A stretch of 64,000 nucleotides of DNA from Bryobacterales bacterium (GCA_963836425.1 CAWIJJ010000007.1:178851-242850), one strand, 5' to 3'; numbered from the stretch's first letter, positions 44,224 to 55,730 are shown. Program-made: numbers and translations. Notes: generated from the letters alone by a model not told the origin.

Positions 44224-45579
44224 TCAAAGCTTTTTGGCGAGGCGGTAGATGAATTCGCAACCCTGGTAGAAGGAGTCCACGCGGAGGCGTTCGTCTTTGC
44301 CGTGCATGCGGACGTCGCCTTCGTCGATGAACATGCCGGTGTTGCCGTAGGTTGGGATGCCGGCGGCGCGCAGGGGGCGGCCGTCGGTGCCGCCGGTTTC
44401 AAGGACGGGGATGAGGGTCACTCCGGGCCAGACCTGGCGGGCGGCGGCTTCGATGGCGCCGATGACATCGGGACGGAGCGGGGAAGCGGGGCTGGCGGGC
44501 GCGGGGCGGGCGGGGGTGACGGCGACCTGCGGGTCGGCGACGACGCGGCGGATGGCGGCCTCGACCTCGGCGGGATTGTCGCCGGGGAGCAGGCGGCAGT
44601 TTACGGCGGCGTGGGCGGATTGGGGCAGGGCGTTCTCGGCGTGGCCGCCGGTGATCTGGGTAGCGATGCAGGTGGTGCGCAGGATGGCGTTGTAAAAGGG
44701 CGAGGCGCTGAGGCGGCGCACGGCCGCGGCACCGGCGCCGGATGCGACGGCACGCATATCGGCCGCGACCTGGCCGGATTCGAGGGCGGCGCGCTTCGAG
44801 AAATAAGCGCGCGTGGTTTCGATCAGGCGGGCGGGAAAGTCGTAAGCAGCGATCCTGGTGAGGGCGGCGGAGAGGCGGTAGATGGCGTTGTCCTTTTCAG
44901 GCAGGGAACTGTGGCCGCCCTTGTTTTTCACATCGAGAAAGAGGGTGTGGTAGAGCTTTTCGCTGGTGACGACTTCGAGGGTGAGGGGCTTGCCGTTGCG
45001 CAGGGTGCCGCCGCCGGAATCGACGTTGATGCAGAATTCCGAATCGATCAGGTCGCGGCGATTGCGGAGCAGCCAGTCGACGCCGTTGGCGATGCCGCTT
45101 TCTTCGCCGGCGGTGAGGGCGAGGATGAGGTCGCGGGAGGGGCGGTAGTTCTCCTTCTTGAGGCGGATGAAGGCGGCGGCGAGGGCGGCGGCGGCATCCT
45201 TGTCGTCCTGGGTGCCGCGGCCGTAGAAGAAGCCGTCGCGCTCGAGGAAGGTGAACGGGTCGAAGCTCCAGTCTTCGCGCCGGGCTTCGACGACGTCGAG
45301 GTGCGCATTGAAGAGGACGGGTTTGGCGGAGCCGGCGCCGTGGAGGCGGACCACAAGGTTGTGATGTTTATCGTCGGCGCCGGCGACGACTACGTCGCTT
45401 TGGGCGTAGCCGGCGGCGAGCATGCGTGCGGCGAGTTTGCGGGAGACGCTGGTGATGTCGGCGCCGGGATCGACGGTGCGGGCTTCAACCAGCTCTCGAA
45501 AGATCTCGCGCGCGAGCGGCCGGTTTTCCTGCCCGGCCAAAGGAAGCGCGAGCAGGAGAAACAGCGCGGCGGTTCGCAT
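44224..45579 (-). CDS. secreted M20/M25/M40-family metallopeptidase
   Basis: Signal peptide MRTAALFLLLALPLAGQ. Metal-binding blocks FNAHLDVV, GRGTQDDK, LTAGEESG. Confidence 0.8.
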   Translation of the reverse strand: MRTAALFLLLALPLAGQENRPLAREIFRELVEARTVDPGADITSVSRKLAARMLAAGYAQSDVVVAGADDKHHNLVVRLHGAGSAKPVLFNAHLDVVEARREDWSFDPFTFLERDGFFYGRGTQDDKDAAAALAAAFIRLKKENYRPSRDLILALTAGEESGIANGVDWLLRNRRDLIDSEFCINVDSGGGTLRNGKPLTLEVVTSEKLYHTLFLDVKNKGGHSSLPEKDNAIYRLSAALTRIAAYDFPARLIETTRAYFSKRAALESGQVAADMRAVASGAGAAAVRRLSASPFYNAILRTTCIATQITGGHAENALPQSAHAAVNCRLLPGDNPAEVEAAIRRVVADPQVAVTPARPAPASPASPLRPDVIGAIEAAARQVWPGVTLIPVLETGGTDGRPLRAAGIPTYGNTGMFIDEGDVRMHGKDERLRVDSFYQGCEFIYRLAKKL

Positions 45580-45582
45580 GGG

Positions 45583-46215
45583 TCAGAACCAATAGCTTAC
45601 ACCTATGGTTGGGGTGAACTGCTGGAAGAGGCCGCGGTCGGTGGCGCCCTCGGCTGGGGTGAAGACGGTGCGGGGGAAGGGCGAGATGTAGTCGTGGAAA
45701 TCGGCGCGCAGGAGCATATGGTCGAGCAGGCGGTATTTTACGCCGAAGCCGAGGCTGGTGACGAACTTCCACTGGTTCTGGCGCATGAGCGTGGCGAACT
45801 GGTCGAGGGGCTGATCGGCGGGCTCGGGTCCGGTGGTGCGGTAGAATTTGCCGCCCGCGCCCACGGCGACGTAGGGGCGGAGGCGGTGGGTGGGATCGTA
45901 GACGTGCACCAGCAGATCGTAGACGAGGGTGTGGGACTGGCCCTGGATCTGCACCTTCTGGCTGCCGGCTGACAGAAAAGGATCGCCGTCCTGGTAAAGG
46001 TAGCGGATTTCACCGGCGAGATGTTCGTGAAGATCCTCACCGACGACGACGCCGGCAACGAAGCGGTTGCCGATGCCGGCGGTGGCCTGCGCGCCGGCTC
46101 CGTTGACCCGCACATTGCGGTTCCAACCGTATCCGATGACCCCGCCGAACTCCCATTGGCCTTGCGCGTAGCAGGCGGCCAAACAGACGAATCCCACCAG
46201 AAGTTTGTACCTCAT
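45583..46215 (-). CDS. outer-membrane beta-barrel protein (OmpA-N/OmpW-like small barrel)
   Basis: Signal peptide MRYKLLVGFVCLAACYAQ. Alternating-hydrophobicity strands. Terminal aromatic signature ...IGVSYWF. Start moved to the ATG at 46215. Confidence 0.75.
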   Translation of the reverse strand: MRYKLLVGFVCLAACYAQGQWEFGGVIGYGWNRNVRVNGAGAQATAGIGNRFVAGVVVGEDLHEHLAGEIRYLYQDGDPFLSAGSQKVQIQGQSHTLVYDLLVHVYDPTHRLRPYVAVGAGGKFYRTTGPEPADQPLDQFATLMRQNQWKFVTSLGFGVKYRLLDHMLLRADFHDYISPFPRTVFTPAEGATDRGLFQQFTPTIGVSYWF

Positions 46216-46257
46216 GCTTGCAGTAGACACTACTTTCGGGGGATGCCGCAATCCGGG

Positions 46258-47157
46258 TCAGGCGGGCTCGGGGTGAACCGTAACATCGGCGCGGGGGACG
46301 GACTGCTGGATGGCGGTTTCGATGGTTTCGGTCAACTCGTGGGCTTGGGCGAGGGTTTGATTACCGTCCACGAGAACGTGGAGGTCGATGAAGAGGACGG
46401 CGCCGGAGTAGCGGGTGCGGACGCTATGGCAGTTCTGCACGCCGGGGACGGCTTCGACGATCTGCACGATTTCGCGCTCCATGCCTGGAGGCGCGGTGTC
46501 GAGCAGCGCTTCCACGGTCCGGCGGCCGAGCTGGAGGCTGACCCAGACGACGACTGCCGAGACGCCGAGGGCGGCGACGGCGTCGGCATTGCGGAGCAAA
46601 GAGAGGGACGGGAACCACTCGCCGGTTTTGACGGCGAACAGGCCGAGGATGACGACGGCGGAACTCCAGATATCGGTTTCAAAGTGCAAGGCGTCGGCCT
46701 CGAGGGCCTGGCTGTGATAGCGTTTGGCGACGCGGGCGAGCACGCGGGAGCGGGAGATGTCGATGGCGATGGAGGTGAACATCACCGCGAAAGACCAGAG
46801 AGTGACTTCGACGTGCTGGTCGTGGAACATGAGGCGATGGATCGCCTCCCAGACGATCCAGCCGCAAGTGACCAGCAGGAGCAGGGTTTCGATCATGGCG
46901 GAGAGGTTCTCGACCTTGCCGTGGCCGTAATTGTGGCTGCTGTCCGGGGGCCGGCCGGCGATGCGGATGGCGATCCAGGTGACGCCGGCGGCCACCAGGT
47001 CGAGGCCGGAGTGCGCGGCTTCGGCGAGGATTCCGAGACTGCCGGTGGCAATACCGACGACGAACTTGAATGCCGTGAGCCCGATGGCGGCGAGCAGGGA
47101 GGTCAGCGCGGCTGATCGCTTCTCGCGCTCCTCAGTCAGCGATGGTGAATGCGTCAC
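46258..47157 (-). CDS. cation diffusion facilitator (CDF) family transporter
   Basis: GSLGILAEAAHSGLDLVAAG (TM2 HxxxD site), HNYGHGKVENL, and a second site HFETDIWSS. A C-terminal cytoplasmic domain follows. Confidence 0.85.
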   Translation of the reverse strand: MTHSPSLTEEREKRSAALTSLLAAIGLTAFKFVVGIATGSLGILAEAAHSGLDLVAAGVTWIAIRIAGRPPDSSHNYGHGKVENLSAMIETLLLLVTCGWIVWEAIHRLMFHDQHVEVTLWSFAVMFTSIAIDISRSRVLARVAKRYHSQALEADALHFETDIWSSAVVILGLFAVKTGEWFPSLSLLRNADAVAALGVSAVVVWVSLQLGRRTVEALLDTAPPGMEREIVQIVEAVPGVQNCHSVRTRYSGAVLFIDLHVLVDGNQTLAQAHELTETIETAIQQSVPRADVTVHPEPA

Positions 47158-47181: not shown

Positions 47182-48435
47182 TTACCGCTCGATGCCGAGC
47201 TGGGCGGAAACCCTGACGAGCGCGGTGATCAGCCGGTCCACATGTTCTTCGGTGTGGGCGGCGGTGACGGAGATGCGCAGCAGGTTCTGGGCGGCGGCGG
47301 GGCGCAGAACCGGGTTGATGTAGATGCCCTCCTCGAGCAGGGTTTTGCAGAGGCGGCAGAGGTCCAGTTCGCGGTCGATGACGACGGGAACGATGGGCGT
47401 TTCGCCGGGGAGCACATTGAAACCGCGGGCGCGCAACTCGTCGCGCAGCACGGAGGAGACGCGCTGGAGGCGATGGCGGCGCTCCGGTTCCTTCTGCATG
47501 ATATGGAGGGCGGCGGAGACGGCGGCCACCGACCCGGCGGGGAGGCTGGCGGAGAAGACGAACGGCCGGGCGGTATGTTTCAGGTACTCGACGACGGCCT
47601 TTTCGGCGGCGATGAAGCCGCCGACCGAGGCGAGCGACTTGCTGAAGGTGCCCATGACGATGTCGATATCATCGAGAACGCCGAGGTGCTCGGCGGCGCC
47701 GGCTCCGGTGGGTCCGAGAACGCCGATGCCGTGGGCTTCGTCCACGTAGACGCGCGCGCCGTAGGGTTTGGAGAGGGCGAGGATGCCGCGAAGGTCGGCG
47801 ATATCGCCTTCCATGCTGAAGACGCCTTCGGAGACGACCAGGATGCGCTCTTCCGGCGGGCAGTTTTCCAGGCAGCGCTCGAAGTGCTCCATATCGTTGT
47901 GGCGGAAGCGCATGGTACGCGCCGGGGAGCGCAGGGCGCCTTCCACCAGGCTGGCATGGAGGTTGTGGTCGCAGATCATGACGTCGCCCTTTTCGGTGAG
48001 GGCCGAGAGGGTGGCGTAGTTGGCCTGAAATCCGGTACCGAATATAATGGCGGCGTCCTTGCGGACGAAAGCGGCCAACTCGGCTTCGAGCTTGACGTGG
48101 AGATCCAGGGTGCCGTTCAGGAGGCGGGAGCCGCTGCAACCGCTGCCGTATTTGCGGGTGGCCTGAGCGGAGGACTCCTTCACTTTGGGATGGGTGATGA
48201 GATCCAGGTAATCGTTGGATCCGAACATCAGGACCTTCCGTTTGCCCATGCGAATCTCGCCTGGGCCACAGCCTTCCCGGTCGCCAAAGACCTCGAAATA
48301 CATGTACAGACCGGCTGCCTGCAGATCACTGGGACGAGTGAAATTACGGCACTTTTCGAATAGGTCGTTCGAAACGTAACCCTTTTTAATTCCTGTGATT
48401 TCGCTACTGGGAACGCGCATGGTCGTCAGTTCCAT
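47182..48435 (-). CDS. spt: serine palmitoyltransferase-like alpha-oxoamine synthase (PLP-dependent)
   Basis: MFGSNDYLDL, SGCSGSRLLNGT, RFRHNDMEHFERCL, SEGVFSMEGDIA, DEAHG. The PLP-lysine block GTFSKSLASVGGF and the block RPFVFSASLP track my recollection of the Sphingomonas Spt sequence (GTFSKSVGTVGGF, RPYIFTASLP, RFRHN) much better than BioF or Kbl. Confidence 0.8.
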   Translation of the reverse strand: MELTTMRVPSSEITGIKKGYVSNDLFEKCRNFTRPSDLQAAGLYMYFEVFGDREGCGPGEIRMGKRKVLMFGSNDYLDLITHPKVKESSAQATRKYGSGCSGSRLLNGTLDLHVKLEAELAAFVRKDAAIIFGTGFQANYATLSALTEKGDVMICDHNLHASLVEGALRSPARTMRFRHNDMEHFERCLENCPPEERILVVSEGVFSMEGDIADLRGILALSKPYGARVYVDEAHGIGVLGPTGAGAAEHLGVLDDIDIVMGTFSKSLASVGGFIAAEKAVVEYLKHTARPFVFSASLPAGSVAAVSAALHIMQKEPERRHRLQRVSSVLRDELRARGFNVLPGETPIVPVVIDRELDLCRLCKTLLEEGIYINPVLRPAAAQNLLRISVTAAHTEEHVDRLITALVRVSAQLGIER

Positions 48436-49541
48436 TCATAGATTCTGTAGTTTTTGTACCGCTGTGCGCCCATTACTTTGATGGAGCGATTCATCAATAC
48501 GTTATCTTCCAGGACCCACGACATCTCGCAATCGCCATAGCCCAGCCTGCGGGCATTTTGAACCAGGTTGGCATAGAACGCGGCCCCCACGCCGGCAGCG
48601 CGGTATTCTTCGACCACGCCTAATGCCAACACCCGTACACGCTTTATCAATCGTTGATAGTACAGGATTTTCAGCAACCCCGTGGGAAATAGTTTGCCCT
48701 CCGCGCGCTTGAGCGCCTGATTAATATCGGGGAGGGCGAGAGCGAAGCCGACCACTTTTCCGTGGATTTCGCCGATGAGCACGAGATCAGGTTTCAGGAT
48801 CTGCTTCATCTCCTTGGCCATGAGGAAAAACTCCTCGCGGGACATGGGGATGAACCCCCAGTTGCGGCTCCACGCCCGGCCGTAAATTTCCCAGACGCAC
48901 TCGACGTCGGCGGCGAACCTCTTCCTGTCGATGGGACGGACGACGAGGGAATGTTTTTCCACAGCGATTTTCGCGACCTGTTCGATTTTCTCGAGGTTGA
49001 TGGTCTGGGCGTTACCGAAGTACGCGACCAGGTCTTTGGCTTTGCGCAGTCCGGCCTGCTCGAGGAGCGCGGCGTAATAGGGCGGGTTGTACGGCATCAT
49101 GACCATGGGCGGCGAGTCAAAACCTTCGACGAGCAGACCGCACTCATAGTTAGTGGACGGATTCACCGGACCGCGGAGGCAGGTTGCGCCGCGCGCGGCA
49201 GTCCACTCGCGGGCGCGGGTGAGAAGGGACGCGGCGACGGCGGGATCGTCTACCGATTCGAAGAATCCGAAAAACCCCGCATTTTCTTCGTGAACGCGGT
49301 TGTGGGTGCGGTCGATGATGGCGGCGATGCGGCCTACGACCTCTCCGTTGCGGCGGGCAAGGAAGAACTCGGCCTCGGCGTTTTGGTAGAACGGGTGCTT
49401 TTCACGGTCGAGCAATTCCCGCACGGCGAGGCGCAGGGGCGGGACCCAGTTGGGGTTGCCGTGATAAAGCCGGTAAGGGAGCTCGACGAAGGCTCTCAGC
49501 CCGCGTTTTCCGCTTATCGCTTCAACTTCAACGCTTTGCAA
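48426..49541 (-). CDS. ~370-aa GNAT-fold acyltransferase (candidate bacterial ceramide synthase)
   Basis: The C-terminal half has the GNAT core ...GKVVGFALALPD...VRVLALGVVEEYRAAGVGAAFYANLVQNARRLGY...WVLEDN. It overlaps spt by 10 nt and the PAP2 gene by 14 nt. The functional call is inferred from context. Confidence 0.55.
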   Translation of the reverse strand: MQSVEVEAISGKRGLRAFVELPYRLYHGNPNWVPPLRLAVRELLDREKHPFYQNAEAEFFLARRNGEVVGRIAAIIDRTHNRVHEENAGFFGFFESVDDPAVAASLLTRAREWTAARGATCLRGPVNPSTNYECGLLVEGFDSPPMVMMPYNPPYYAALLEQAGLRKAKDLVAYFGNAQTINLEKIEQVAKIAVEKHSLVVRPIDRKRFAADVECVWEIYGRAWSRNWGFIPMSREEFFLMAKEMKQILKPDLVLIGEIHGKVVGFALALPDINQALKRAEGKLFPTGLLKILYYQRLIKRVRVLALGVVEEYRAAGVGAAFYANLVQNARRLGYGDCEMSWVLEDNVLMNRSIKVMGAQRYKNYRIYEWN

Positions 49542-50403
49542 GAGCGGAACCCCCTTCGGCCAGAATGCTGTACAGGATAGGTCCAGTCCAAATCAGAAAA
49601 GCCGCGAGGATGGCCCCAGCCATCAGGTCCACCGTGTAGTGATATCGAAGATAAACTGTAGCAAAAATGATGCAAACGGTGTAGACCAAATACGCTTTGA
49701 AAAGGCCTTTCGATACCAGGCGGCTGCCCCAGCAGGCGAGGATGGTGAGCTCGGTGTGGCCGCTCGGAAAGCAGTCGTAGTGGGCGGATTCGAGGCGGTC
49801 GAGGGTGGACTGCATGGCGGCGAACATCCAGTCGCCGCGGAGGGGGATGTGTTGCAGGGAGGCCAGGAGGAAGCGCGGGCCGCGCGCCGGCACAAAGAGG
49901 TAGCCGATGTAGGAGGTCAGGAAGCCGAGGGCAATCAGGAAGGCCATGTACTGGAACGCGGCGAAGTCGCGGCGGCGCCAGATGAGGAAGGGCACGAGGA
50001 GAACGGCGGGGATGAACAGGGTATAGACGATTTGGAGAAACTCGGTAAGGGCGGGGAATTGAATACGTTCCAGCCATACGGTGGGGTGGGCGCCCCAGAT
50101 GCGGTAGTCGAGGTCGGCCAGCCAGCGGTCGGCGCTGCTATGGCGGATGGCGGGGATGAGGACGGCCATTTCCTTGTAACAAGAGGCTACGTAGGGAAGG
50201 GGATACCAGTTCCGGAAGATCCAGGTAGTGGGGTTGGGACGCTTGATCTCGAACAGCGCCAGGGCGGTAGCGGCCAGGTGCACGGCGAGTTGAAGTCCGG
50301 GTTTGGGGAGAGCGGACCACCAGCCAACGATCAGCGAAGAGGCAAAGAGCAGGTAGGCGAGGATGATCTTGTCGACGGGCCAGAAGCGGGTGCCGGCGGG
50401 CAT
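49528..50403 (-). CDS. PAP2-superfamily membrane phosphotransferase of the sphingomyelin-synthase / IPC-synthase type
   Basis: Six-TM protein from the ATG at 50403 (MPAGTRFWPVDKIILAYLLF...). Catalytic motifs HYDCFPSGHTELT and RYHYTVDLMAG match the SMS D3 (S-G-H-T) and D4 (H-Y-T-x-D) signatures. Confidence 0.75.
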   Translation of the reverse strand: MPAGTRFWPVDKIILAYLLFASSLIVGWWSALPKPGLQLAVHLAATALALFEIKRPNPTTWIFRNWYPLPYVASCYKEMAVLIPAIRHSSADRWLADLDYRIWGAHPTVWLERIQFPALTEFLQIVYTLFIPAVLLVPFLIWRRRDFAAFQYMAFLIALGFLTSYIGYLFVPARGPRFLLASLQHIPLRGDWMFAAMQSTLDRLESAHYDCFPSGHTELTILACWGSRLVSKGLFKAYLVYTVCIIFATVYLRYHYTVDLMAGAILAAFLIWTGPILYSILAEGGSALAKR

Positions 50404-50408
50404 TGGTC

Positions 50409-51368
50409 CTAGTAGTTTAGCCAACCGGCCTCCTTGTACCAGGACAGGGTGTGAGCGAGGCCGTCGCCGATGGAAGTAGCGGCGGCGAAGCCGAGGTCGG
50501 CGGCTGCCCTCGACGGATCGCAGGTCCAATGGGGGAAGAGCGCTTCCCGGATTTTGTCCCGGGAAACGATACCGGGGCGGCGGCGCATGCGGGACCAGCA
50601 TTCGGCGGCGAGTCCGGTGGCGAAAGCGAGCGGAACGGGCACGGTGACGGTGCGGGGACGGCGGCCCACGATGGCGGCGGCGGCGGCGCCGAACTCGCTC
50701 CAGGTGAGGGCCTTGGGATGGGACAGGAAATACGCTCCCCGGGCCTGGGGGTGACGCGCACACGTGATGAGTCCGCGGACCAGGTCGTGGACGTAGATGG
50801 CGCTGAACCAGCGGGGTCCGCCGGCGATTTCGACGACGAGCCCGCGGCAGACGGACTGGAGGAGCTGGAAAACGTCGGTATCGCGAGGTCCGTAGACGAC
50901 CGGCGGCCGCACGATGACGGCATCAGGGATAGCTGCGAGGACGGCCTGTTCGCCCTGGAGCTTGGAAATGCCGTAATGGGTGACGGGATTGGGTCCGGCA
51001 TCCTCGCGGAGGGGGGCGCCATCGGGACTGGGACCGATGGCGGCAAGAGAGCTGACGTGGACGAAACGGAGCGGGCGGCCGGCGGCTGCGCGCGCGAGAT
51101 TTTCAGAGGCGGCGGCGTTACCCGTATAGTATTCGGCGGGCGCAAGCGCTTTGGTAGTGCCGGCGAGATGAATCACGGCATCGACGCCTTCGAGGGCCTG
51201 GGGGAGGGAGCGGGGGCTGGACAGGTCGGCCAGGACGACTTCGGCGGCGGAAGGCAGGGCGGTGCGGGCCGGGCGGCGGAGCAGACAGCGGACGCGTTCG
51301 CCGGAGGCGCAGAGGGTTTCGACGAGGTGGCCGCCGATAAAGCCGGTGGCGCCCGTGACCAGAATCAC
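50409..51368 (-). CDS. NAD(P)-dependent epimerase/dehydratase-family (extended SDR) protein (candidate ceramide/3-keto reductase)
   Basis: MILVTGATGFIGGHLV is the Rossmann motif. YGISK is the YxxxK catalytic dyad. The ATG overlaps the upstream gene stop by 4 nt. Confidence 0.8.
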   Translation of the reverse strand: MILVTGATGFIGGHLVETLCASGERVRCLLRRPARTALPSAAEVVLADLSSPRSLPQALEGVDAVIHLAGTTKALAPAEYYTGNAAASENLARAAAGRPLRFVHVSSLAAIGPSPDGAPLREDAGPNPVTHYGISKLQGEQAVLAAIPDAVIVRPPVVYGPRDTDVFQLLQSVCRGLVVEIAGGPRWFSAIYVHDLVRGLITCARHPQARGAYFLSHPKALTWSEFGAAAAAIVGRRPRTVTVPVPLAFATGLAAECWSRMRRRPGIVSRDKIREALFPHWTCDPSRAAADLGFAAATSIGDGLAHTLSWYKEAGWLNY

Positions 51369-51988
51369 TGGGGTGCGTTGCGGAAGGCGACTTCACCGAA
51401 ATAGCTTTCCGCGACGGTCCCGGTATGTTGAGAGTTGACCTGGAGCCGCAGACCTTTCACCCGCGGCGCCGGTTTCCCGTAGGCTTTCTGGTAATCTTCG
51501 GCGACGTTGTGGGATTCGGGAATCCAACGGTTCAGGCCGGCCGGGCCCGACTGACAGACCATGGCAAAGATGCGCACGAACGGAATAGAGCTGGCGTTCT
51601 GGAAGATACCTTGGGGAGCGGTGGAATCCCAGATGTAAGTGAGCACGCGGCGGTCGCTAAAGGCGACCAGGACCTGGGCGGCCTGATCGTCGGTGGCGGC
51701 ACGGCGAAAATCGCCGCCCTCGGGAAGCCGGGTGACCTTCCACTGCCAGTTCAGGAAAGGGGTTTCGGCGGGGTCGATATCGAGGCTGCGTTCCAGGGCG
51801 AAGGAAGCTTTGACACTTTTGAGGTGAAGACAGCCGGGCTCTTCGGAGGTGCAGACGGAAACGCGAGGAGTGCCGCGGTTGACCTTGAGCGCCCAACCGG
51901 AGGGCAGGCGGCCGCTGGGGAGGTTAGCGGCATCGAGCACGATGATGGCCAGTTGCGCCGGACGTGCGGCGGACAGGCACAGGAGCAC
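51365..51988 (-). CDS. DUF3047-like exported protein, first gene of the sphingolipid operon
   Basis: 207-aa ORF (GTG start; the hydrophobic leader may extend further upstream but I see no ATG). Motifs: WALKVNRGTP..., PFLNWQWKV..., DDQAAQVLVAF. The family call is from memory of the DUF3047 pattern. Confidence 0.5.
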   Translation of the reverse strand: MLLCLSAARPAQLAIIVLDAANLPSGRLPSGWALKVNRGTPRVSVCTSEEPGCLHLKSVKASFALERSLDIDPAETPFLNWQWKVTRLPEGGDFRRAATDDQAAQVLVAFSDRRVLTYIWDSTAPQGIFQNASSIPFVRIFAMVCQSGPAGLNRWIPESHNVAEDYQKAYGKPAPRVKGLRLQVNSQHTGTVAESYFGEVAFRNAPQ

Positions 51989-52168
51989 TGTAAAAACGCG
52001 CAGAAGGTTCCTCAGATAACCTCGCAGACCGGCCCGCGGAGACGAGCGCTTCTACATCCAATACTATCGCATCGCTTCGCTTGACGCGGTGAGGAACATT
52101 CCGGTTGCGGGGGCTAGTGGCGGAGGGATGTGGGGAAGGGCGGCCCCTGTTATGATGAGGATTACTTC

Positions 52169-53005
52169 ATGAAGGCATTACTGGAAACGCTCCAGCGCGG
52201 GGACAAGGATTGGGAACTTGTACAGGCCCTGGACCCGGCCCGCCTGCCGAAGCATATCGCCGTGATCATGGACGGCAACGGACGTTGGGCCGGCAGGCGA
52301 CGGCTGCCGCGGGTGGCAGGGCACAAGGCGGGGGTGGTCCCGGTACGGGTAACGGTGGAAACCTGCGCGCGCCTGGGTGTGAAGGTGCTGACGCTTTACG
52401 CCTTCTCGGTAGAGAACTGGAAGCGGCCCCGGCACGAGGTGGAAACGTTGTGGCGGCTGCTTCGCTACTATCTGCGGCAGGAGTTGCCTGAACTGCAAAA
52501 GCACGATGTCCGGCTGCAGGCCATCGGCAGGCTGGACGCGCTGCCGCCGCAGGTACGGCGGGAACTCGATTCGGCAGTGGAAGCGACGTCGGCGAACCGC
52601 GGGCTGCTGGTGAACCTGGCCATCAATTACGGGGGGCGCGCGGAGATCGTGGATGCGGTCAACTCGATTCTGGAGATGGCGCGGCTGGACGGCAGCATTG
52701 CGACGTTGAAGATGGACGAGGACCTGATCGCGACCAGCCTGTACACGGCAGCGTGCCCGGAGCCGGACCTGCTCATCCGGACGTCGGGGGAGATGCGCAT
52801 CAGCAATTTTCTGCTGTGGCAGATTGCGTATGCCGAGTTGTACGTCACCGAAACGCTGTGGCCGGATTTTTCGCGGACCGACCTTCTCGAGGCTTTGCTG
52901 GCGTACCAGAAGCGCGACCGCCGCTATGGCGGGCTGAGCGCCGTTGAACTCGACGGCGGAACGGATTCCGACGCGGATCTGATCGAAGCCCTCCGTTCCT
53001 CATGA
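52169..53005 (+). CDS. uppS: isoprenyl transferase (undecaprenyl-diphosphate synthase)
   Basis: PKHIAVIMDGNGRWA, LTLYAFSVENWKRP, IRTSGEMRISNFLLWQIAYAELY. Start moved to the ATG at 52169. Confidence 0.95.
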   Translation: MKALLETLQRGDKDWELVQALDPARLPKHIAVIMDGNGRWAGRRRLPRVAGHKAGVVPVRVTVETCARLGVKVLTLYAFSVENWKRPRHEVETLWRLLRYYLRQELPELQKHDVRLQAIGRLDALPPQVRRELDSAVEATSANRGLLVNLAINYGGRAEIVDAVNSILEMARLDGSIATLKMDEDLIATSLYTAACPEPDLLIRTSGEMRISNFLLWQIAYAELYVTETLWPDFSRTDLLEALLAYQKRDRRYGGLSAVELDGGTDSDADLIEALRSS

Positions 53006-53775
53006 AGCGGATTCTGACCGCGCTGGCCCTGATCCCTATCGTTGTCTACGTGGTGTTGTGGGCGAACGAGTGGATTTTTCTGGGGGTGGTGGCGCTGGTG
53101 GCGTGCCTGTGTTACCGCGAATACGACGGGATTGCGGGCGCGTACGGATTCGGGCCACCGGGACCGGTGGGATACGGCGCCGGGCTGCTGATCCTCTTTT
53201 GGCAGGGCGATCCATGGCTGCTGCTGGTGCTGCTGGCTCCGCTGGCGCTGGTGCTGGTGATGCGGGCGGAAAACCTGGCGCAGTCGCTGCCGCGGGCGGC
53301 GATGCTGATAGCGGGCGTGGTTTATGTTTACGGCTGCTGGCGCTGTGCGGTCGCGCTGCGGGAAGCGAACCGGCACTGGCTGATGTTCGCGCTGCTGGTG
53401 AACTGGGTGGGGGACATCGGCGCGTACTACGTGGGGCGCACTCTGGGACGGCACAAACTGGCTCCGCGGGTGAGTCCGAACAAGTCGTGGGAAGGTGCGG
53501 CGGGTTCGGTGGCGGCTTCGCTGCTGATTGCGTGGCCGTACCTGCTGCGCTTCATACCCGGGCTCGGCGTGGCTGCGGCGGCGCTGCTGACGGTGGCGTC
53601 GAACGCGACCGGGCAGGTGGGGGACCTGGCGGAATCGGCGATGAAGCGGGGCGCGGGAGTGAAGGACAGCGGCGCCATCCTGCCGGGGCACGGAGGGTTT
53701 CTGGACCGGGTGGACAGCACGCTTTTTGTGCTGCCGGTGCTTTACGCGCTGGTCCGCCTGCTGAATCCGGCGTAG
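53002..53775 (+). CDS. cdsA: phosphatidate cytidylyltransferase
   Basis: SPNKSWEGAAGS and the CdsA signature GDLAESAMKRGAGVKDSGAILPGHGGFLDRVDS. The ATG overlaps the uppS stop. Confidence 0.95.
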   Translation: MKRILTALALIPIVVYVVLWANEWIFLGVVALVACLCYREYDGIAGAYGFGPPGPVGYGAGLLILFWQGDPWLLLVLLAPLALVLVMRAENLAQSLPRAAMLIAGVVYVYGCWRCAVALREANRHWLMFALLVNWVGDIGAYYVGRTLGRHKLAPRVSPNKSWEGAAGSVAASLLIAWPYLLRFIPGLGVAAAALLTVASNATGQVGDLAESAMKRGAGVKDSGAILPGHGGFLDRVDSTLFVLPVLYALVRLLNPA

Positions 53776-55730
53776 GCCGCGGCGAGCAAGCCGGCGAGCG
53801 CGGCGCAACTCAACCAGCGGCAGAGGCGCGATTCCCAGCCGCCGTCATAACGGAGTTCCACAAGGCAAGCGCCGTCGCAGGCGGGCGCGATCCACATCAG
53901 GCCGAGGCCGTCTTTGTGAACGCGGGTGCTGCGGCCGTTGGCTGTGGCTTGCCAGCCGGGATGGTAGTTAACCTGGACGGTCAGGGCCTGGCCGTGCGAC
54001 AGGGGAGTGCGGACAGTGAAAAGATTTCTCCCTTGCCACGAGGATGCGGCCGTTGGAAGCGACGGATCGTCGAGGGCCGCCACGTAGCGCTGCAGATCCG
54101 CGACATCCTCGGGGGTGGCGGGCGGCCTGGACACGAGCGCGGCTTGGGGGACGACGTGGGCGAAGCCGGGTTCACGCAGCGGGACGCGGTAGATGGTGAC
54201 GCCGTCCTCGCTCCACAATGCGGGCAGGAGCCCGTCGAACTTGGCTGGATGGGTGAAGCCTTTCCAATACTCGCGGCTGCCGGGAGAACTCACTCCCACG
54301 GCGCCGGTGCCGAAGGCTTTCAGCCAGAGCAAGGAGTTGCGCGCATCTTCTTCCGCCGTGCCTCCGCCGAATACGATGGCGGCATGGCCGTACTGCTGCA
54401 TCAGGTTGGCGGCCATAGTGAAGGAGCCGCCGCCGTACTGCGAAACATCGGAGAAGGCGTTGGCCCATTGTCCAACCGATCCCGGCAGGTAGACGCGGGT
54501 GCCCGCGAGATGTTCGCCTGTCCAGACGGCGGCGCGGTATTCCACGGTTCGCGTGACGTCAATGGGGAAGGTGAAACTCTTTTCGAAGCGGCGATAGGCG
54601 ACGGTCTGCTCGAAGGCGAGCGCCAGCAGTACCAGCACCAGCGCGCGCCTGGCGACGGCGGGGAAACGGTCCACTACGCTGCGCAGGGCAAAGACGGAAA
54701 GCAGGGCCAGGGCCAGTTCGAACTCGAGCTTGTAGCGGCCGGGCTGCGGGAGAAAGTGGCGGTTACCGAGAGCACCCATGAGGGGAATGCTGCCGGTGAG
54801 CCAGGCAAAGAGGGCGAAGAAGTGCAGGCGGCGGTCCTTGGTCCACCGGGCCAGGTAATGCCAGAGAACCATCCATCCGGCAACTGTGACGGCGAGGGCG
54901 GTGACCGAACCGGGGTTCCAGCCATCGACGTCGCTGTCGGCGGCCATGGTCCGAATGGCGCGGATTAAAGAGGGCGACAGGTAGGGAGACGCCAACGCAT
55001 AGGCCCAGGCGGCGATGGCCGCGGCGAGAGCGAGGTTGCGGCGCCAGTCCACCCGGCCCATGACGAACAGGAGGCACAGGGCAGCCATAGCGGCCTGGAC
55101 CACGCCGAAGACGCTGGCGAGGGCCATGGCGGCGGCGGTGGCGGCTGCGGCGGCGGTGTACGCGATTCGCCGGGTCTCAAGAGCGCGCCACAGGAACAGG
55201 ATCAGCAGGGGCAGCAGGGCGAGAGCGGCGGCGTGCGGGGTATCGTCCCAAACGGAGATGAGGAACAGGCGGCGGGCCTCTCCGATCTTTCCGATTCCGA
55301 AGCCGCCGTCGGGGAGCAGGAGTTGGGTGGGGGAGAGGAGAGAGTAGGCGAGGGCGGCGGCGAAGCTGTAGGCGGGCGAGCCGGACAGTCGCCAGAGGGC
55401 GAAGAAAAGCGCCAGCGGACCGAGCAGGTAGACGAATCCGGAGACGGCGAAGAAGGCCTGGTCGACGGGCAGGCGGAGCAGCGCGGAGTACGCGGCGGTG
55501 GCGGCCGGCACAAGCGGAGAATAGGCGGCTTCGAAGGGGATGCCGGCGTCCCAGAAGGGAAACCATCCACCGCTCCACCACGAGCCCTGCGCCAGGCGCG
55601 CGAGACCGATCCAGGTTCCGTGCATGGCGTTCATGTGTCCGGCGCGGGCCGTGAACAGGTCGCGACAGATGTAGAGATTGACCCACAGGAGCGCGGCGGC
55701 GCAGGCCGCGGGGGCCAGGGCTTTGCGCAT
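53742..55730 (-). CDS. large polytopic membrane protein with C-terminal extracytoplasmic domain (possible GT-C-fold glycosyltransferase)
   Basis: 662 aa. About 11 TM helices in the first 400 residues, then a soluble domain and a terminal TM. It lies directly downstream of the TolC-like gene. The function is not established from sequence alone. Confidence 0.5.
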   Translation of the reverse strand: MRKALAPAACAAALLWVNLYICRDLFTARAGHMNAMHGTWIGLARLAQGSWWSGGWFPFWDAGIPFEAAYSPLVPAATAAYSALLRLPVDQAFFAVSGFVYLLGPLALFFALWRLSGSPAYSFAAALAYSLLSPTQLLLPDGGFGIGKIGEARRLFLISVWDDTPHAAALALLPLLILFLWRALETRRIAYTAAAAATAAAMALASVFGVVQAAMAALCLLFVMGRVDWRRNLALAAAIAAWAYALASPYLSPSLIRAIRTMAADSDVDGWNPGSVTALAVTVAGWMVLWHYLARWTKDRRLHFFALFAWLTGSIPLMGALGNRHFLPQPGRYKLEFELALALLSVFALRSVVDRFPAVARRALVLVLLALAFEQTVAYRRFEKSFTFPIDVTRTVEYRAAVWTGEHLAGTRVYLPGSVGQWANAFSDVSQYGGGSFTMAANLMQQYGHAAIVFGGGTAEEDARNSLLWLKAFGTGAVGVSSPGSREYWKGFTHPAKFDGLLPALWSEDGVTIYRVPLREPGFAHVVPQAALVSRPPATPEDVADLQRYVAALDDPSLPTAASSWQGRNLFTVRTPLSHGQALTVQVNYHPGWQATANGRSTRVHKDGLGLMWIAPACDGACLVELRYDGGWESRLCRWLSCAALAGLLAAAYAGFSRRTSA

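Follow-up and report, generated by a model that had tools for sequence, protein, structure and literature searches.

Ceramide Synthesis Genes in Caulobacter and Related Gene Clusters

The ceramide pathway of Caulobacter crescentus comprises the serine palmitoyltransferase Spt (CC_1162), the ceramide synthase bCerS (CC_1154/CCNA_01212), CerR (CC_1164/CCNA_01222), AcpR, and AasR (Olea-Ozuna 2021; Stankeviciute 2022; PMC9386255; PMC11087976). The locus analyzed here lies within a stretch of 64,000 nucleotides from a Bryobacterales bacterium (GCA_963836425.1, CAWIJJ010000007.1:178851-242850; hereafter the window) and resembles the Caulobacter system in that genes for an alpha-oxoamine synthase (AOS), a YghO-type GNAT protein, and an NDUFA9-like SDR protein are clustered, with dihydroceramide as the expected product. 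Unlike in Caulobacter, the block encodes neither a dedicated ACP nor an acyl-ACP synthetase, so that acyl-CoA probably serves as the acyl donor, as it does for Bacteroidota-type Spt. In addition, the Spt candidate of the block falls on the Bacteroidota/Actinomycetota branch of the tree rather than on the 'Rhodobacteria' branch, and genes for a PAP2_3 and a DUF3047 protein are located inside the block. In Caulobacter, head groups are provided by other enzymes, namely those of the CPG pathway and ceramide kinase.

The Spt/bCerS/CerR triad is already known in many phyla, and the AOS-GNAT-SDR combination was found to recur in Streptomyces, Rubrobacter, Nonomuraea, Aureispira, E. coli, and Sphingomonas. 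The closest relatives of the core outside Acidobacteriota are the triads of Streptomyces sp. NBC_01001, Rubrobacter radiotolerans, Nonomuraea gerenzanensis, and Aureispira anguillae, which show 42% (AOS), 38-45% (GNAT), and 31-42% (SDR) identity to the block proteins. Like the block, these triads are contiguous and lack an ACP, but their gene order is AOS-GNAT-SDR instead of SDR-PAP2-GNAT-AOS. None of the four has a PAP2_3 or DUF3047 gene; other accessory genes are present instead, in Rubrobacter one for a member of the LTA-synthase family and in Streptomyces one for a protein with a condensation domain.

The first-pass annotation had left open whether such an arrangement has been described for Acidobacteriota. 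Going by the title of their 2024 paper (Front Geochem 2:1400278), Halamka et al. reportedly found ceramides in Solibacter usitatus, which belongs to the same family (Solibacteraceae), and this lipid class equals the predicted product of the core genes of the block. In contrast, the incorporation of a candidate Aur1-like transferase and a DUF3047 protein into the cluster looks undescribed. One packed, widely conserved block joins three bacterial ceramide enzyme families, an Aur1-like membrane protein, and an exported protein, and it provides a tangible genetic entry point to sphingolipids in a phylum that ranks among the most abundant in soil. Those parts of the first-pass reading that computation could address all held up. 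We estimate a probability of about 0.75 that these genes form a co-expressed operon by which this soil acidobacterium synthesizes a sphingolipid de novo.

Organization of the Five-Gene Block

Five packed, co-directional genes had been proposed on the minus strand at positions 47182-51988. All five open reading frames are present, in the order DUF3047, SDR, PAP2, GNAT, and AOS, and their junctions (4-nt overlap, 5-nt gap, 14-nt overlap, and 10-nt overlap) as well as the quoted motifs GATGFIG, YGISK, GTFSKSLASVGGF, RFRHN, and RPFVFSASLP were recovered from the sequence. The genome, described as acidobacterium-like, is that of an acidobacterium of the family Solibacteraceae. Pfam searches assigned the proteins to DUF3047, Epimerase, PAP2_3, Acetyltransf_1 (weakly), and Aminotran_1_2, respectively.

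Two genes have alternative starts. The PAP2 frame is open to 50763, beyond the ATG, and a TTG at 50424 with GGAGG 4 nt upstream would make the gene overlap that of SDR by 16 nt; this start was called in the nearest relative, and the window's own gene call (P0241) corresponds to the 291-residue form. For AOS, the second ATG (48420) is used in the nearest relative, giving 412 residues. Judging from the gene layout, a promoter of the block could only lie in the intergenic 141 bp (51989-52129) that separate it from the divergently oriented uppS-cdsA genes. A consensus scan detected no promoter-like site in this region, and the region-wide site counts were at chance level. A search for public sequencing runs of this organism yielded none.

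Conservation of the Block in Acidobacteriota

A survey of gene neighborhoods across Acidobacteriota, as suggested by the first-pass annotation, returned 80 loci, the S. usitatus genome itself not being among them; 66 loci from different genomes had enough flanking sequence on both sides to be testable. The order DUF3047-SDR-PAP2-GNAT-AOS was kept in 59 of these 66, an arrangement far beyond chance. The block occurs in Bryobacterales, Solibacteraceae, Terriglobia, and Acidiferrales MAGs, including MAGs labeled Candidatus Solibacter, and amino acid identities of the block proteins ranged from 47 to 98% in the scanned loci (ranges read from the table). Among the exceptions, DUF3047 was missing in four loci, SDR in two, and PAP2 together with DUF3047 in one.

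It could be argued that the five genes are mere neighbors and that DUF3047, and perhaps PAP2, have unrelated envelope roles and are kept in place by genomic inertia. The four loci without DUF3047 and the one that keeps the triad without PAP2 and DUF3047 fit this explanation, as does the occurrence of DUF3047 in unrelated contexts in Proteobacteria and Fusobacteriota. Moreover, three unrelated co-directional genes downstream of the block are packed just as tightly in the window, encoding a CDF transporter (46258-47157, 24-nt gap to the block), an OMP beta-barrel protein (45583-46251), and an M20 peptidase (44224-45579). These downstream genes, by contrast, are conserved in the nearest relative only, and the flanking genes vary between the other loci. 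The PAP2 gene lies inside the block and DUF3047 at its head, not at a variable edge, and both positions are constant across genomes in which the cassette proteins are only ~50-70% identical and the flanks unrelated. We therefore regard mere neighborhood as very improbable.

The Alpha-Oxoamine Synthase Resembles Serine Palmitoyltransferases

The last gene of the block (47182-48435) encodes an AOS of 417 amino acids, for which a relationship to Spt rather than to BioF or Kbl had been proposed. Several lines of evidence agree with this proposal. The NCBIfam model for Spt (CFB type) scored highest (449.9 bits), ahead of BioF (371 bits) and Kbl (334 bits), and the best relative in the PDB was the SPT of Sphingobacterium multivorum (341 bits, the next match scoring 256 bits). 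In a neighbor-joining tree, the protein was placed within the clade of characterized Spt enzymes with 95% bootstrap support, apart from BioF and Kbl. Furthermore, the catalytic residues of Sphingomonas SPT have aligned counterparts in His160, Asp232, His235, Thr263, Lys266, and Arg387. Based on these comparisons, AOS is a candidate Spt of the Bacteroidota/Actinomycetota type that operates without a dedicated ACP, and it would form 3-ketosphinganine from serine and a long-chain acyl thioester.

The substrate specificity of this family is not readable from sequence, and the protein might use alanine, glycine, or cysteate in place of serine, leading not to a canonical sphingolipid but to a 1-deoxy-ceramide, a sulfonolipid-like compound, or another N-acylated amino-alcohol lipid in which the 1-hydroxyl for head-group attachment might be absent. 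In line with this, the score for Spt is below the equivalog cut-off of 640 bits, all other NCBIfam equivalog cut-offs are missed as well, and the score of a cysteate-C-fatty acyltransferase (237 bits) is near those of the Sphingomonas SPTs. Alanine use by bacterial Spt enzymes, yielding 1-deoxyceramides, is described in the supplement of one study (PMC11334938). However, the closest characterized relative is, by a wide margin, a genuine SPT, the residues for catalysis and carboxylate binding are retained, and the gene is linked to that of an Aur1-like enzyme, a type which requires the 1-hydroxyl group. The ceramides named in the title on S. usitatus also argue for serine, and we consider a different amino acid substrate quite unlikely.

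The GNAT and SDR Proteins Are Candidates for bCerS and CerR

The GNAT protein (48426-49541, 371 amino acids) had been likened to bCerS. Pfam Acetyltransf_1 matched it only weakly (30 bits, residues 217-347), and more than 7,900 homologs were present in the protein collection. Full-length identities to YghO-family acyltransferases of spt clusters support the proposed relationship, with values of 34-44% in E. coli (YghO, 36%), Sphingomonas (34%), and Streptomyces and Rubrobacter (41-44%), complemented by 45% in Nonomuraea and 38% in Aureispira. The genes of all these homologs adjoin those of an Spt-like AOS and an SDR; on the 11.85-Mb replicon of Nonomuraea, the best SDR match is located directly next to the best GNAT match.

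The SDR protein (50409-51368, 319 amino acids) matched Pfam Epimerase with 111.6 bits, and its relatives in the PDB include NDUFA9. It carries the GATGFIG and YGISK motifs and is homologous to the 'epi'/CerR proteins encoded next to spt in Sphingomonas, E. coli, Streptomyces, and Rubrobacter. Identities amount to 33% for the Sphingomonas parapaucimobilis protein, whose gene adjoins acpR-spt, 28% for the ECD_02852-type protein of E. coli, and 38-42% for the Rubrobacter and Streptomyces SDRs; a Bacteroides SDR is 28% identical. The yghO gene (ECD_02850) and ECD_02852 are given as the same genes as CC_1154 and CC_1164, respectively, the E. coli and Sphingomonas genes are equated with Caulobacter genes required for dihydroceramide synthesis, and SPT activity was shown for the E. 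coli enzyme (PMC9386255). The two proteins are thus candidate members of the bCerS and CerR families, the link to Caulobacter being transitive via the E. coli and Sphingomonas homologs. An N-terminal signal peptide was not found on the SDR protein, although the CerR of Caulobacter reportedly resides in the periplasm (PMC11087976), a point that counts against the overall reading.

In the proposed pathway, the GNAT protein would attach the amide-linked acyl chain and the SDR protein would act on the long-chain base or on the oxidized ceramide, reducing its 3-keto group to give dihydroceramide. The order of acylation and 3-keto reduction is disputed even in Caulobacter. That the core genes lead to ceramide is, in our view, highly probable.

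The PAP2 Protein Is a Candidate Head-Group Transferase

The PAP2 gene (49528-50403) encodes an integral membrane protein of 291 amino acids counted from the ATG, previously proposed to be of the IPC/sphingomyelin-synthase type. Pfam PAP2_3 (63 bits) matched it better than PAP2 (35.8 bits) or PAP2_C (25.3 bits), and the invariant motifs CFPSGHT and YLRYHYTVD provide a His-His-Asp triad. As in Aur1, the inositol phosphorylceramide synthase of yeast, in BT_1522, and in the animal sphingomyelin synthase/SMSr family, the PAP2_3 domain and the PSGH and HYxxD motifs are combined with the absence of KxxxxxxRP, the phosphate-binding C1 motif of phosphatases. The position of the phosphatase 'SR' is occupied by 'AT' ('ST' in Aur1), and the C3 arginine is absent. 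In a Foldseek search with an AF2 model (pLDDT 75, low at residues 176-211 adjoining the active site), the best match was an Aur1-ceramide complex (9vj4_A, TM 0.65/0.67), followed by Aur1-Kei1 (9ivc_A, TM 0.60/0.53) and human SMSr (8ijq_A, TM 0.45/0.49). The linkage to ceramide synthesis genes is another feature shared with the Aur1 type, and in Bacteroides the Aur1 homolog BT_1522 is required for phosphoinositol dihydroceramide formation (PMC9246714), an example of bacterial use of such an enzyme. On the other hand, the identity to Aur1 is only about 19-20%, with a family profile match over 150 residues of marginal significance (E 0.017), and unlike in yeast no Kei1-like subunit is present. 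An inositol-phosphate synthase gene was not seen adjoining the block.

Most bacterial members of the PAP2 superfamily are phosphatases, and the core might therefore be combined with a lipid phosphate phosphatase acting on ceramide-1-phosphate, a long-chain-base phosphate, undecaprenyl pyrophosphate, or lipid A 1-phosphate, in which case the end product would be free ceramide or otherwise non-phosphorylated. Public annotations as 'membrane-associated phospholipid phosphatase' point in this direction, as do the lowest E-value in the PDB profile search, obtained for LpxE (0.0045), an additional match to PgpB, and the word ceramides in the S. usitatus title. The LpxE and PgpB matches, however, are confined to the C2-C3 motifs (60-70 residues), compared to 150 residues for Aur1, and in the Foldseek E-value ranking all phosphatases, such as PgpB (8bm3_A, E 0.55, TM 0.44/0.52), were behind Aur1 and SMSr. 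The preference for PAP2_3 over the generic PAP2 family, the missing C1 motif and C3 arginine, and the location of the gene between the cerR and bcerS candidates in 59 of the 66 loci are further arguments against a phosphatase, to which we assign a low probability.

A head-group transferase is the reading that the domain assignment, the weak Aur1 profile match, and the modeled fold moderately favor. According to its positive-inside loops, WRRRDF and SRLVSKGLFK, the protein is predicted to expose the PSGH and HYTVD motifs, and with them the His-His-Asp site, on the periplasmic face. There, the enzyme would move a phospho-alcohol from a glycerophospholipid donor onto the 1-hydroxyl of ceramide with release of diacylglycerol, giving a ceramide-phospho-X, with X standing for the alcohol. 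Aur1 and sphingomyelin synthases likewise transfer their head groups with diacylglycerol release.

The DUF3047 Protein

The first gene of the block (51365-51988) encodes a protein of 207 amino acids as readable, which matched Pfam DUF3047 with 106.9 bits. An exported protein had been predicted, and an exported or periplasmic beta-jelly-roll protein is consistent with both the signal-like N-terminal segment LKKLLL...QARTS of its homologs and the all-beta sandwich of the AF2 model (pLDDT 82). Foldseek returned FAP20 and GH11/GH12 jelly rolls with TM scores of about 0.55 and nothing specific. Outside the block, DUF3047 occurs fused to an OmpA domain, in agreement with export, but no consistent lipid context was seen for DUF3047 genes there. 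A functional link to the pathway appears somewhat more plausible than its absence: at the periplasmic face the protein might modify the head group, handle lipids, or act as an accessory subunit. A stop codon has destroyed the ancestral start in the window (ATG TAG, compared to ATG GAG in the nearest relative), so that the reading frame can only begin at the GTG at 51988, with a truncated signal peptide.

Organization of the gene block

The block consists of five minus-strand genes, which an ORF listing placed at exactly the coordinates proposed in the first-pass annotation. In the order of transcription, they encode a DUF3047 protein (51365-51988, 207 aa, Pfam DUF3047 with 107 bits), an SDR (50409-51368, 319 aa, Pfam Epimerase with 112 bits), a PAP2 protein (49528-50403, 291 aa when started at ATG, Pfam PAP2_3 with 63 bits), a GNAT acyltransferase (48426-49541, 371 aa, Pfam Acetyltransf_1 with 30 bits, matched in the C-terminal half only), and an alpha-oxoamine synthase (AOS; 47182-48435, 417 aa, Pfam Aminotran_1_2 with 203 bits). 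The four junctions, a 4-nt overlap, a 5-nt gap, a 14-nt overlap, and a 10-nt overlap, were reproduced, and all motifs previously quoted were found in the encoded proteins. The earlier observation is real, and its interpretation as a cassette for ceramide and head-group synthesis is supported by the analyses reported here.

Several start codons allow alternatives. The open frame of the PAP2 gene extends up to 50763 and contains a TTG start at 50424 with a GGAGG sequence 4 nt upstream. This start corresponds to the gene call in the nearest relative, a Solibacteraceae MAG, whereas the gene call of the window itself is the 291-aa form. For AOS, the second ATG is an alternative start. The DUF3047 gene of the nearest relative starts with ATG GAG AAG, whereas the window has ATG TAG AAG, i.e., an in-frame stop at codon 2 (51989-52050, minus strand). 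As a consequence, DUF3047 can begin only at the GTG at 51988 in the window, which shortens the signal-like N-terminus of its product. Possible explanations are a genuine truncation, the use of a non-canonical start, and a sequencing error. Scans for promoters and terminators gave site counts at chance level, and no hits were obtained when the window was scanned for tRNAs and Rfam families. A search for public sequencing runs that cover this region retrieved none. A single transcription unit is indirectly supported by the overlaps between stop and start codons and by the conservation of the block.

Conservation of the block in Acidobacteriota

In a scan limited to one genome per species, relatives of the GNAT protein were encoded at 80 loci, 79 of which were labelled as Acidobacteriota (Bryobacterales, Bryobacteraceae, Solibacteraceae, Candidatus Solibacter, Terriglobia, Acidiferrales). 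The nearest relative was the Solibacteraceae MAG with 87% identity. The conservation of the five block proteins and of four flanking ones was analyzed by tblastn, and the order DUF3047-SDR-PAP2-GNAT-AOS recurred across the loci. When only the 66 loci with sufficient flanking sequence on either side were counted, all five genes were present in the same order in 59. DUF3047 was missing in four and the SDR in two of the 66 loci, and a single one lacked both PAP2 and DUF3047, keeping SDR-GNAT-AOS alone. The same block was also found on an 8.67-Mb MAG contig. The flanking genes for a CDF transporter, an OMP beta-barrel protein, UppS, and CdsA were found again only in the nearest relative. The recurrence of the block is strong evidence that it represents a functional unit.

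The only locus with another label (L020, DATJYJ010000482.1) was assigned to Verrucomicrobiia. It carries a block with 70% GNAT identity that is indistinguishable from the Bryobacteraceae versions, and it is nearly identical to a locus labelled Acidiferrales (L077). A binning or labelling error is likely here, rather than gene transfer.

Candidate enzymes for ceramide synthesis

The triad of Spt, bCerS, and CerR was established in Caulobacter and has been inferred in nine and later in forty phyla (PMC11334938). The ceramide core of the block contributes a further lineage to this known pathway, which dozens of phyla are inferred to possess.

Among the NCBIfam models, AOS scored best with NF047600 for Spt of the CFB type (449.9 bits), followed by BioF (371), the beta-proteobacterial Spt (369), and Kbl (334). 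The best score is below the NF047600 cut-off of 640, and none of the alpha-oxoamine synthase models reached its own cut-off. The protein is a distinct lineage outside assignment by NCBI rules. In the PDB, the SPT of Sphingobacterium multivorum ranked first with 341 bits, followed by a Thermus BioF/Kbl enzyme (256), the Sphingomonas SPTs (~240-247), cysteate acyltransferase (237), Kbl (~215), and BioF (~210). Residues His160, Asp232, His235, Thr263, Lys266, and Arg387 of AOS align with the catalytic residues His159, Asp231, His234, Thr262, Lys265 (the PLP-binding lysine), and Arg390 of Sphingomonas SPT. The position of Arg378 in the latter enzyme is occupied by Leu both in AOS and in the E. coli SPT, which is active. 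A neighbor-joining tree (388 columns, 200 bootstraps) was calculated with BioF and Kbl of E. coli MG1655 and without HemA, CqsA, and CFAT. AOS was placed within a clade comprising all Spt sequences (95% bootstrap support), where it shared a sub-clade (78%) with S. multivorum SPT and proteins of Aureispira, Rubrobacter, and Streptomyces. BioF and Kbl of E. coli and the Thermus BioF/Kbl enzyme were located outside the Spt clade, which means that AOS does not cluster with BioF or Kbl. The tree and the PDB ranking agree with the initial view of an Spt-like protein distinct from BioF and Kbl. Judged by these comparisons, AOS is a candidate serine palmitoyltransferase, which is predicted to condense L-serine with a long-chain acyl thioester.

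The GNAT protein belongs to a very large and strongly conserved family, with more than 7,900 homologues in the protein collection at E ≤ 1e-5, the best 120 of which are at least 70% identical. NCBIfam holds no model for this family, and a PDB sequence search yielded only chance-level GNAT matches. The key step for its assignment was a tblastn search against annotated plasmid and chromid records. GNAT showed 36% identity to E. coli YghO over its full length (residues 4-369), 34% to the GNAT encoded in the Sphingomonas cluster, and 34-45% to unnamed GNATs of Sphingomonas, Streptomyces, Rubrobacter, Nonomuraea, and Aureispira. YghO was the sole GNAT match in the chromosome-sized E. coli records. 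In all matched records of these six genera, the gene for the GNAT relative was accompanied by genes for an SDR of the epimerase family and an aminotransferase resembling Spt. The full-length homology to the YghO family and this linkage are in line with the bCerS type proposed at the outset. In PMC9386255, the legend to Figure 9 names “aca: CC_1154, yghO ECD_02850, ..., DRN02_007910” among the genes required for dihydroceramide synthesis. GNAT is a supported candidate for the bCerS family, its link to Caulobacter CCNA_01212 being transitive, via the E. coli and Sphingomonas homologues and PMC9386255.

The SDR carries the motif GATGFIG at residues 6-12 and YGISK in addition to its Pfam Epimerase match, and its PDB relatives include the NDUFA9 subunits of complex I. 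Its identity to the SDRs of spt clusters is 33% for Sphingomonas, 28% for E. coli, 42% for Streptomyces, 38% for Rubrobacter, and 31% for Aureispira, and both features fit the epimerase/NDUFA9-like CerR type suggested before. On the 11.85-Mb replicon of Nonomuraea, the best SDR match is located directly beside the best GNAT match. The top NCBIfam model, HpnA, remained far below its cut-off (124.7 versus 367.65). Since both GNAT and SDR are homologous to proteins of spt clusters, neither is unrelated to bCerS and CerR. The same figure legend of PMC9386255 also names “epi: CC_1164, ECD_02852, ..., DRN02_007875” as required for dihydroceramide synthesis. An assignment of the SDR as a CerR candidate is supported by homology, again transitively via the E. 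coli and Sphingomonas proteins and PMC9386255. Caulobacter CerR is reported to be periplasmic and Spt and bCerS cytoplasmic, the export route of CerR itself being undefined (PMC11087976). The acidobacterial SDR has neither a signal peptide nor a TM segment, and its Rossmann motif starts at residue 6.

The PAP2 protein as candidate head-group transferase

Head-group attachment to ceramide is poorly known in bacteria. In Bacteroides thetaiotaomicron, the Aur1 homologue BT_1522 is needed for phosphoinositol dihydroceramide (PMC9246714). In the literature that was searchable, no bacterial ceramide phosphoethanolamine or phosphoglycerol synthase was found to have been identified, BT_1522 (inositol) aside, and no account was found of either PAP2 or DUF3047 as part of a ceramide gene cluster in bacteria.

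The PAP2 protein of the block exceeded the PAP2_3 gathering score of 27 with its 63 bits, scored 35.8 with PAP2, and stayed just below the threshold of PAP2_C, the family of the SMS C-terminus (25.3 versus 27). PAP2_3 was recorded for most of its homologues. A PDB search with the single sequence found nothing. With a profile built from 19 members of the family, yeast Aur1 was retrieved (E 0.017-0.027) in an alignment spanning some 150 residues. The matches of this profile to the phosphatases LpxE and PgpB were confined to a stretch of 60-70 residues containing the C2 and C3 motifs. The motifs CFPSGHT and YLRYHYTVD are invariant among 39 homologues and contribute a His-His-Asp triad (H216, H255, D259). 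The phosphatase C1 motif KxxxxxxRP is absent from these homologues, and where phosphatases have their C3 arginine they carry “AT”, which aligns with “ST” of Aur1 and “ER” of LpxE. From what is established for these families, a triad without the C1 motif or the C3 arginine separates transferases from phosphatases.

An AlphaFold model built on these homologues (pLDDT 75, pTM 0.74) was compared with the PDB using Foldseek. Aur1 with ceramide ranked first (9vj4_A, E 8e-4, TM 0.65/0.67), Aur1-Kei1 second (9ivc_A, TM 0.60/0.53), and human SMSr with ceramide third (8ijq_A, TM 0.45/0.49), whereas PgpB and acid phosphatases (PhoN) followed below Aur1 and SMSr by E-value. A phosphatase function is considered improbable. 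Family membership, motif pattern, and the top-ranking folds bear out the sphingomyelin/IPC-synthase type assigned in the first-pass annotation, and we estimate a probability of roughly 0.6 that PAP2 is a ceramide phospho-head-group transferase, which would move a phospho-alcohol from a glycerophospholipid onto ceramide. From the charged loops WRRRDF and SRLVSKGLFK we infer that both motifs lie on the periplasmic side, which is the usual orientation in the PAP2 superfamily.

spt clusters of other phyla

The clusters fetched from other phyla differ in composition and order: yghO, acyl-AMP ligase, SDR, ACP, and AOS in E. coli, SDR-ACP-Spt followed by lptFG-desaturase-GNAT in Sphingomonas parapaucimobilis, and AOS-GNAT-SDR in Streptomyces and Rubrobacter. 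The gene order in Sphingomonas exactly matches the locus-tag steps in PMC9386255. Adjacency of the GNAT, spt, and cerR genes was found in the window, in 59 of the 66 acidobacterial loci, and in clusters of three other phyla. PAP2_3 and DUF3047 were absent from all spt clusters fetched from other phyla.

The actinobacterial triads are followed by a gene for an LTA-synthase family protein in Rubrobacter (L085:9227-11296) and for a condensation-domain protein in Streptomyces (L084:10045-11292). These differing accessory genes suggest lineage-specific head-group or tailoring steps. Genes annotated as lptF and lptG are located in or beside the spt clusters of E. coli (L082:2343-4489) and Sphingomonas (L083:5282-7575), which hints at a dedicated sphingolipid export route in those proteobacteria. 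No equivalent of lptF or lptG was found in the acidobacterial block.

In Bacteroides finegoldii (L088:5706-7669), a gene for a CerR-like SDR (28% identity, E 5e-40) overlaps a PAP2 gene (23%, E 7e-10). The pair is located outside the known inositol-lipid cluster; the pairing was not seen in Parabacteroides distasonis (L093). As a hint only, the B. finegoldii PAP2 protein may be the sought-after enzyme of Bacteroides that makes non-inositol phospho-dihydroceramide.

DUF3047 and a possible periplasmic-face module

Homologues of the DUF3047 protein start with a signal-like segment. A structural model (pLDDT 82) shows a beta-jelly roll, whose nearest solved folds are FAP20 and the GH11/GH12 glycosidases (TM ~0.55), giving no specific functional lead. 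A PDB match to an “exported protein” (0.043) was gone once a profile was used. The family comprises 2,566 representative clusters at E ≤ 0.001. In one homologue (P0458), DUF3047 is fused to an OmpA peptidoglycan-binding domain, which supports a periplasmic location. Another (P0449) carries an endonuclease/exonuclease/phosphatase domain, which is a weak hint; that half of P0449 yielded no PDB relative, and a “sphingomyelinase-like” function was discarded for this reason. In P0425, the C-terminal part of DUF3047 is fused to an epimerase-family SDR, probably as a read-through of the 4-nt overlap. The neighbourhoods of DUF3047 genes in Methylocystis, Ilyobacter, and Nitratireductor were unrelated and showed no common theme. 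The sole argument for a role of DUF3047 in the pathway is its fixed place at the head of the block, which holds even for the most diverged cassettes sampled.

Tentatively, PAP2_3 and DUF3047 might form a hitherto undescribed periplasmic-face module in the acidobacterial ceramide cluster, although we consider this combined assignment rather doubtful. PAP2_3 would be an Aur1/SMS-type synthase of ceramide-phosphoethanolamine, -phosphoglycerol or -phosphoinositol, DUF3047 an accessory subunit or a head-group-processing enzyme, and, by extension, the PAP2 protein of B. finegoldii would make the non-inositol lipid of Bacteroides. If it were an accessory subunit, DUF3047 would be functionally analogous but unrelated to Kei1, the subunit of Aur1.

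The Aur1-like enzyme and DUF3047, built into the cluster, appear to be the new part and open head-group synthesis to direct tests. With the block, a particular enzyme becomes the candidate for head-group attachment, and DUF3047, a domain of unknown function, is tied to a defined pathway for testing. Acidobacteriota, especially Bryobacterales/Solibacteraceae, are among the most abundant soil bacteria, and the conserved five-gene block is an easily recognised marker for ceramide capacity in soil metagenomes. Ceramides in soil were correlated with an Acidobacteriota ASV (PMC9969633) and have apparently been reported in one isolate of the same family, Solibacter usitatus (Halamka et al., 2024).

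Flanking genes and lineage-specific extensions

Downstream of the synthase gene, three further minus-strand genes follow, encoding a CDF cation-efflux protein (46258-47157, after 24 nt), a small OMP beta-barrel protein (45583-46251, gap of 6 nt), and an M20 peptidase (44224-45579, gap of 3 nt). They were considered as block members and rejected, since their conservation does not extend beyond the nearest relative; they may be co-transcribed with the block although they are outside the conserved unit. Upstream, uppS and cdsA (52130-53775, plus strand), the genes for undecaprenyl-diphosphate synthase and CDP-diacylglycerol synthase, are divergent to the block, an adjacency of lipid genes present only in the window and the nearest relative. 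They are followed by a minus-strand ORF of 662 aa (53742-55730), the 3′ end of which overlaps that of cdsA by 34 nt. Its product has no Pfam match and looks membrane-embedded, with an N-terminal half that by eye is rich in hydrophobic stretches. In the nearest relative, a DDE transposase gene occupies the corresponding place.

In about 21 loci (L017:1725-3449, L092:4165-4938, and others), a co-directional gene for a HEAT-repeat protein whose N-terminus holds a membrane segment is located just upstream of DUF3047, and in about 16 loci rpoC is found further upstream of it; both genes are absent from the window. In seven acidobacterial loci (L020:8374-10068 and six others), a gene for an ArnT/PMT_2-like GT-C glycosyltransferase starts about 25 nt after the synthase gene and may extend the block by a lipid-glycosylating function in certain lineages.
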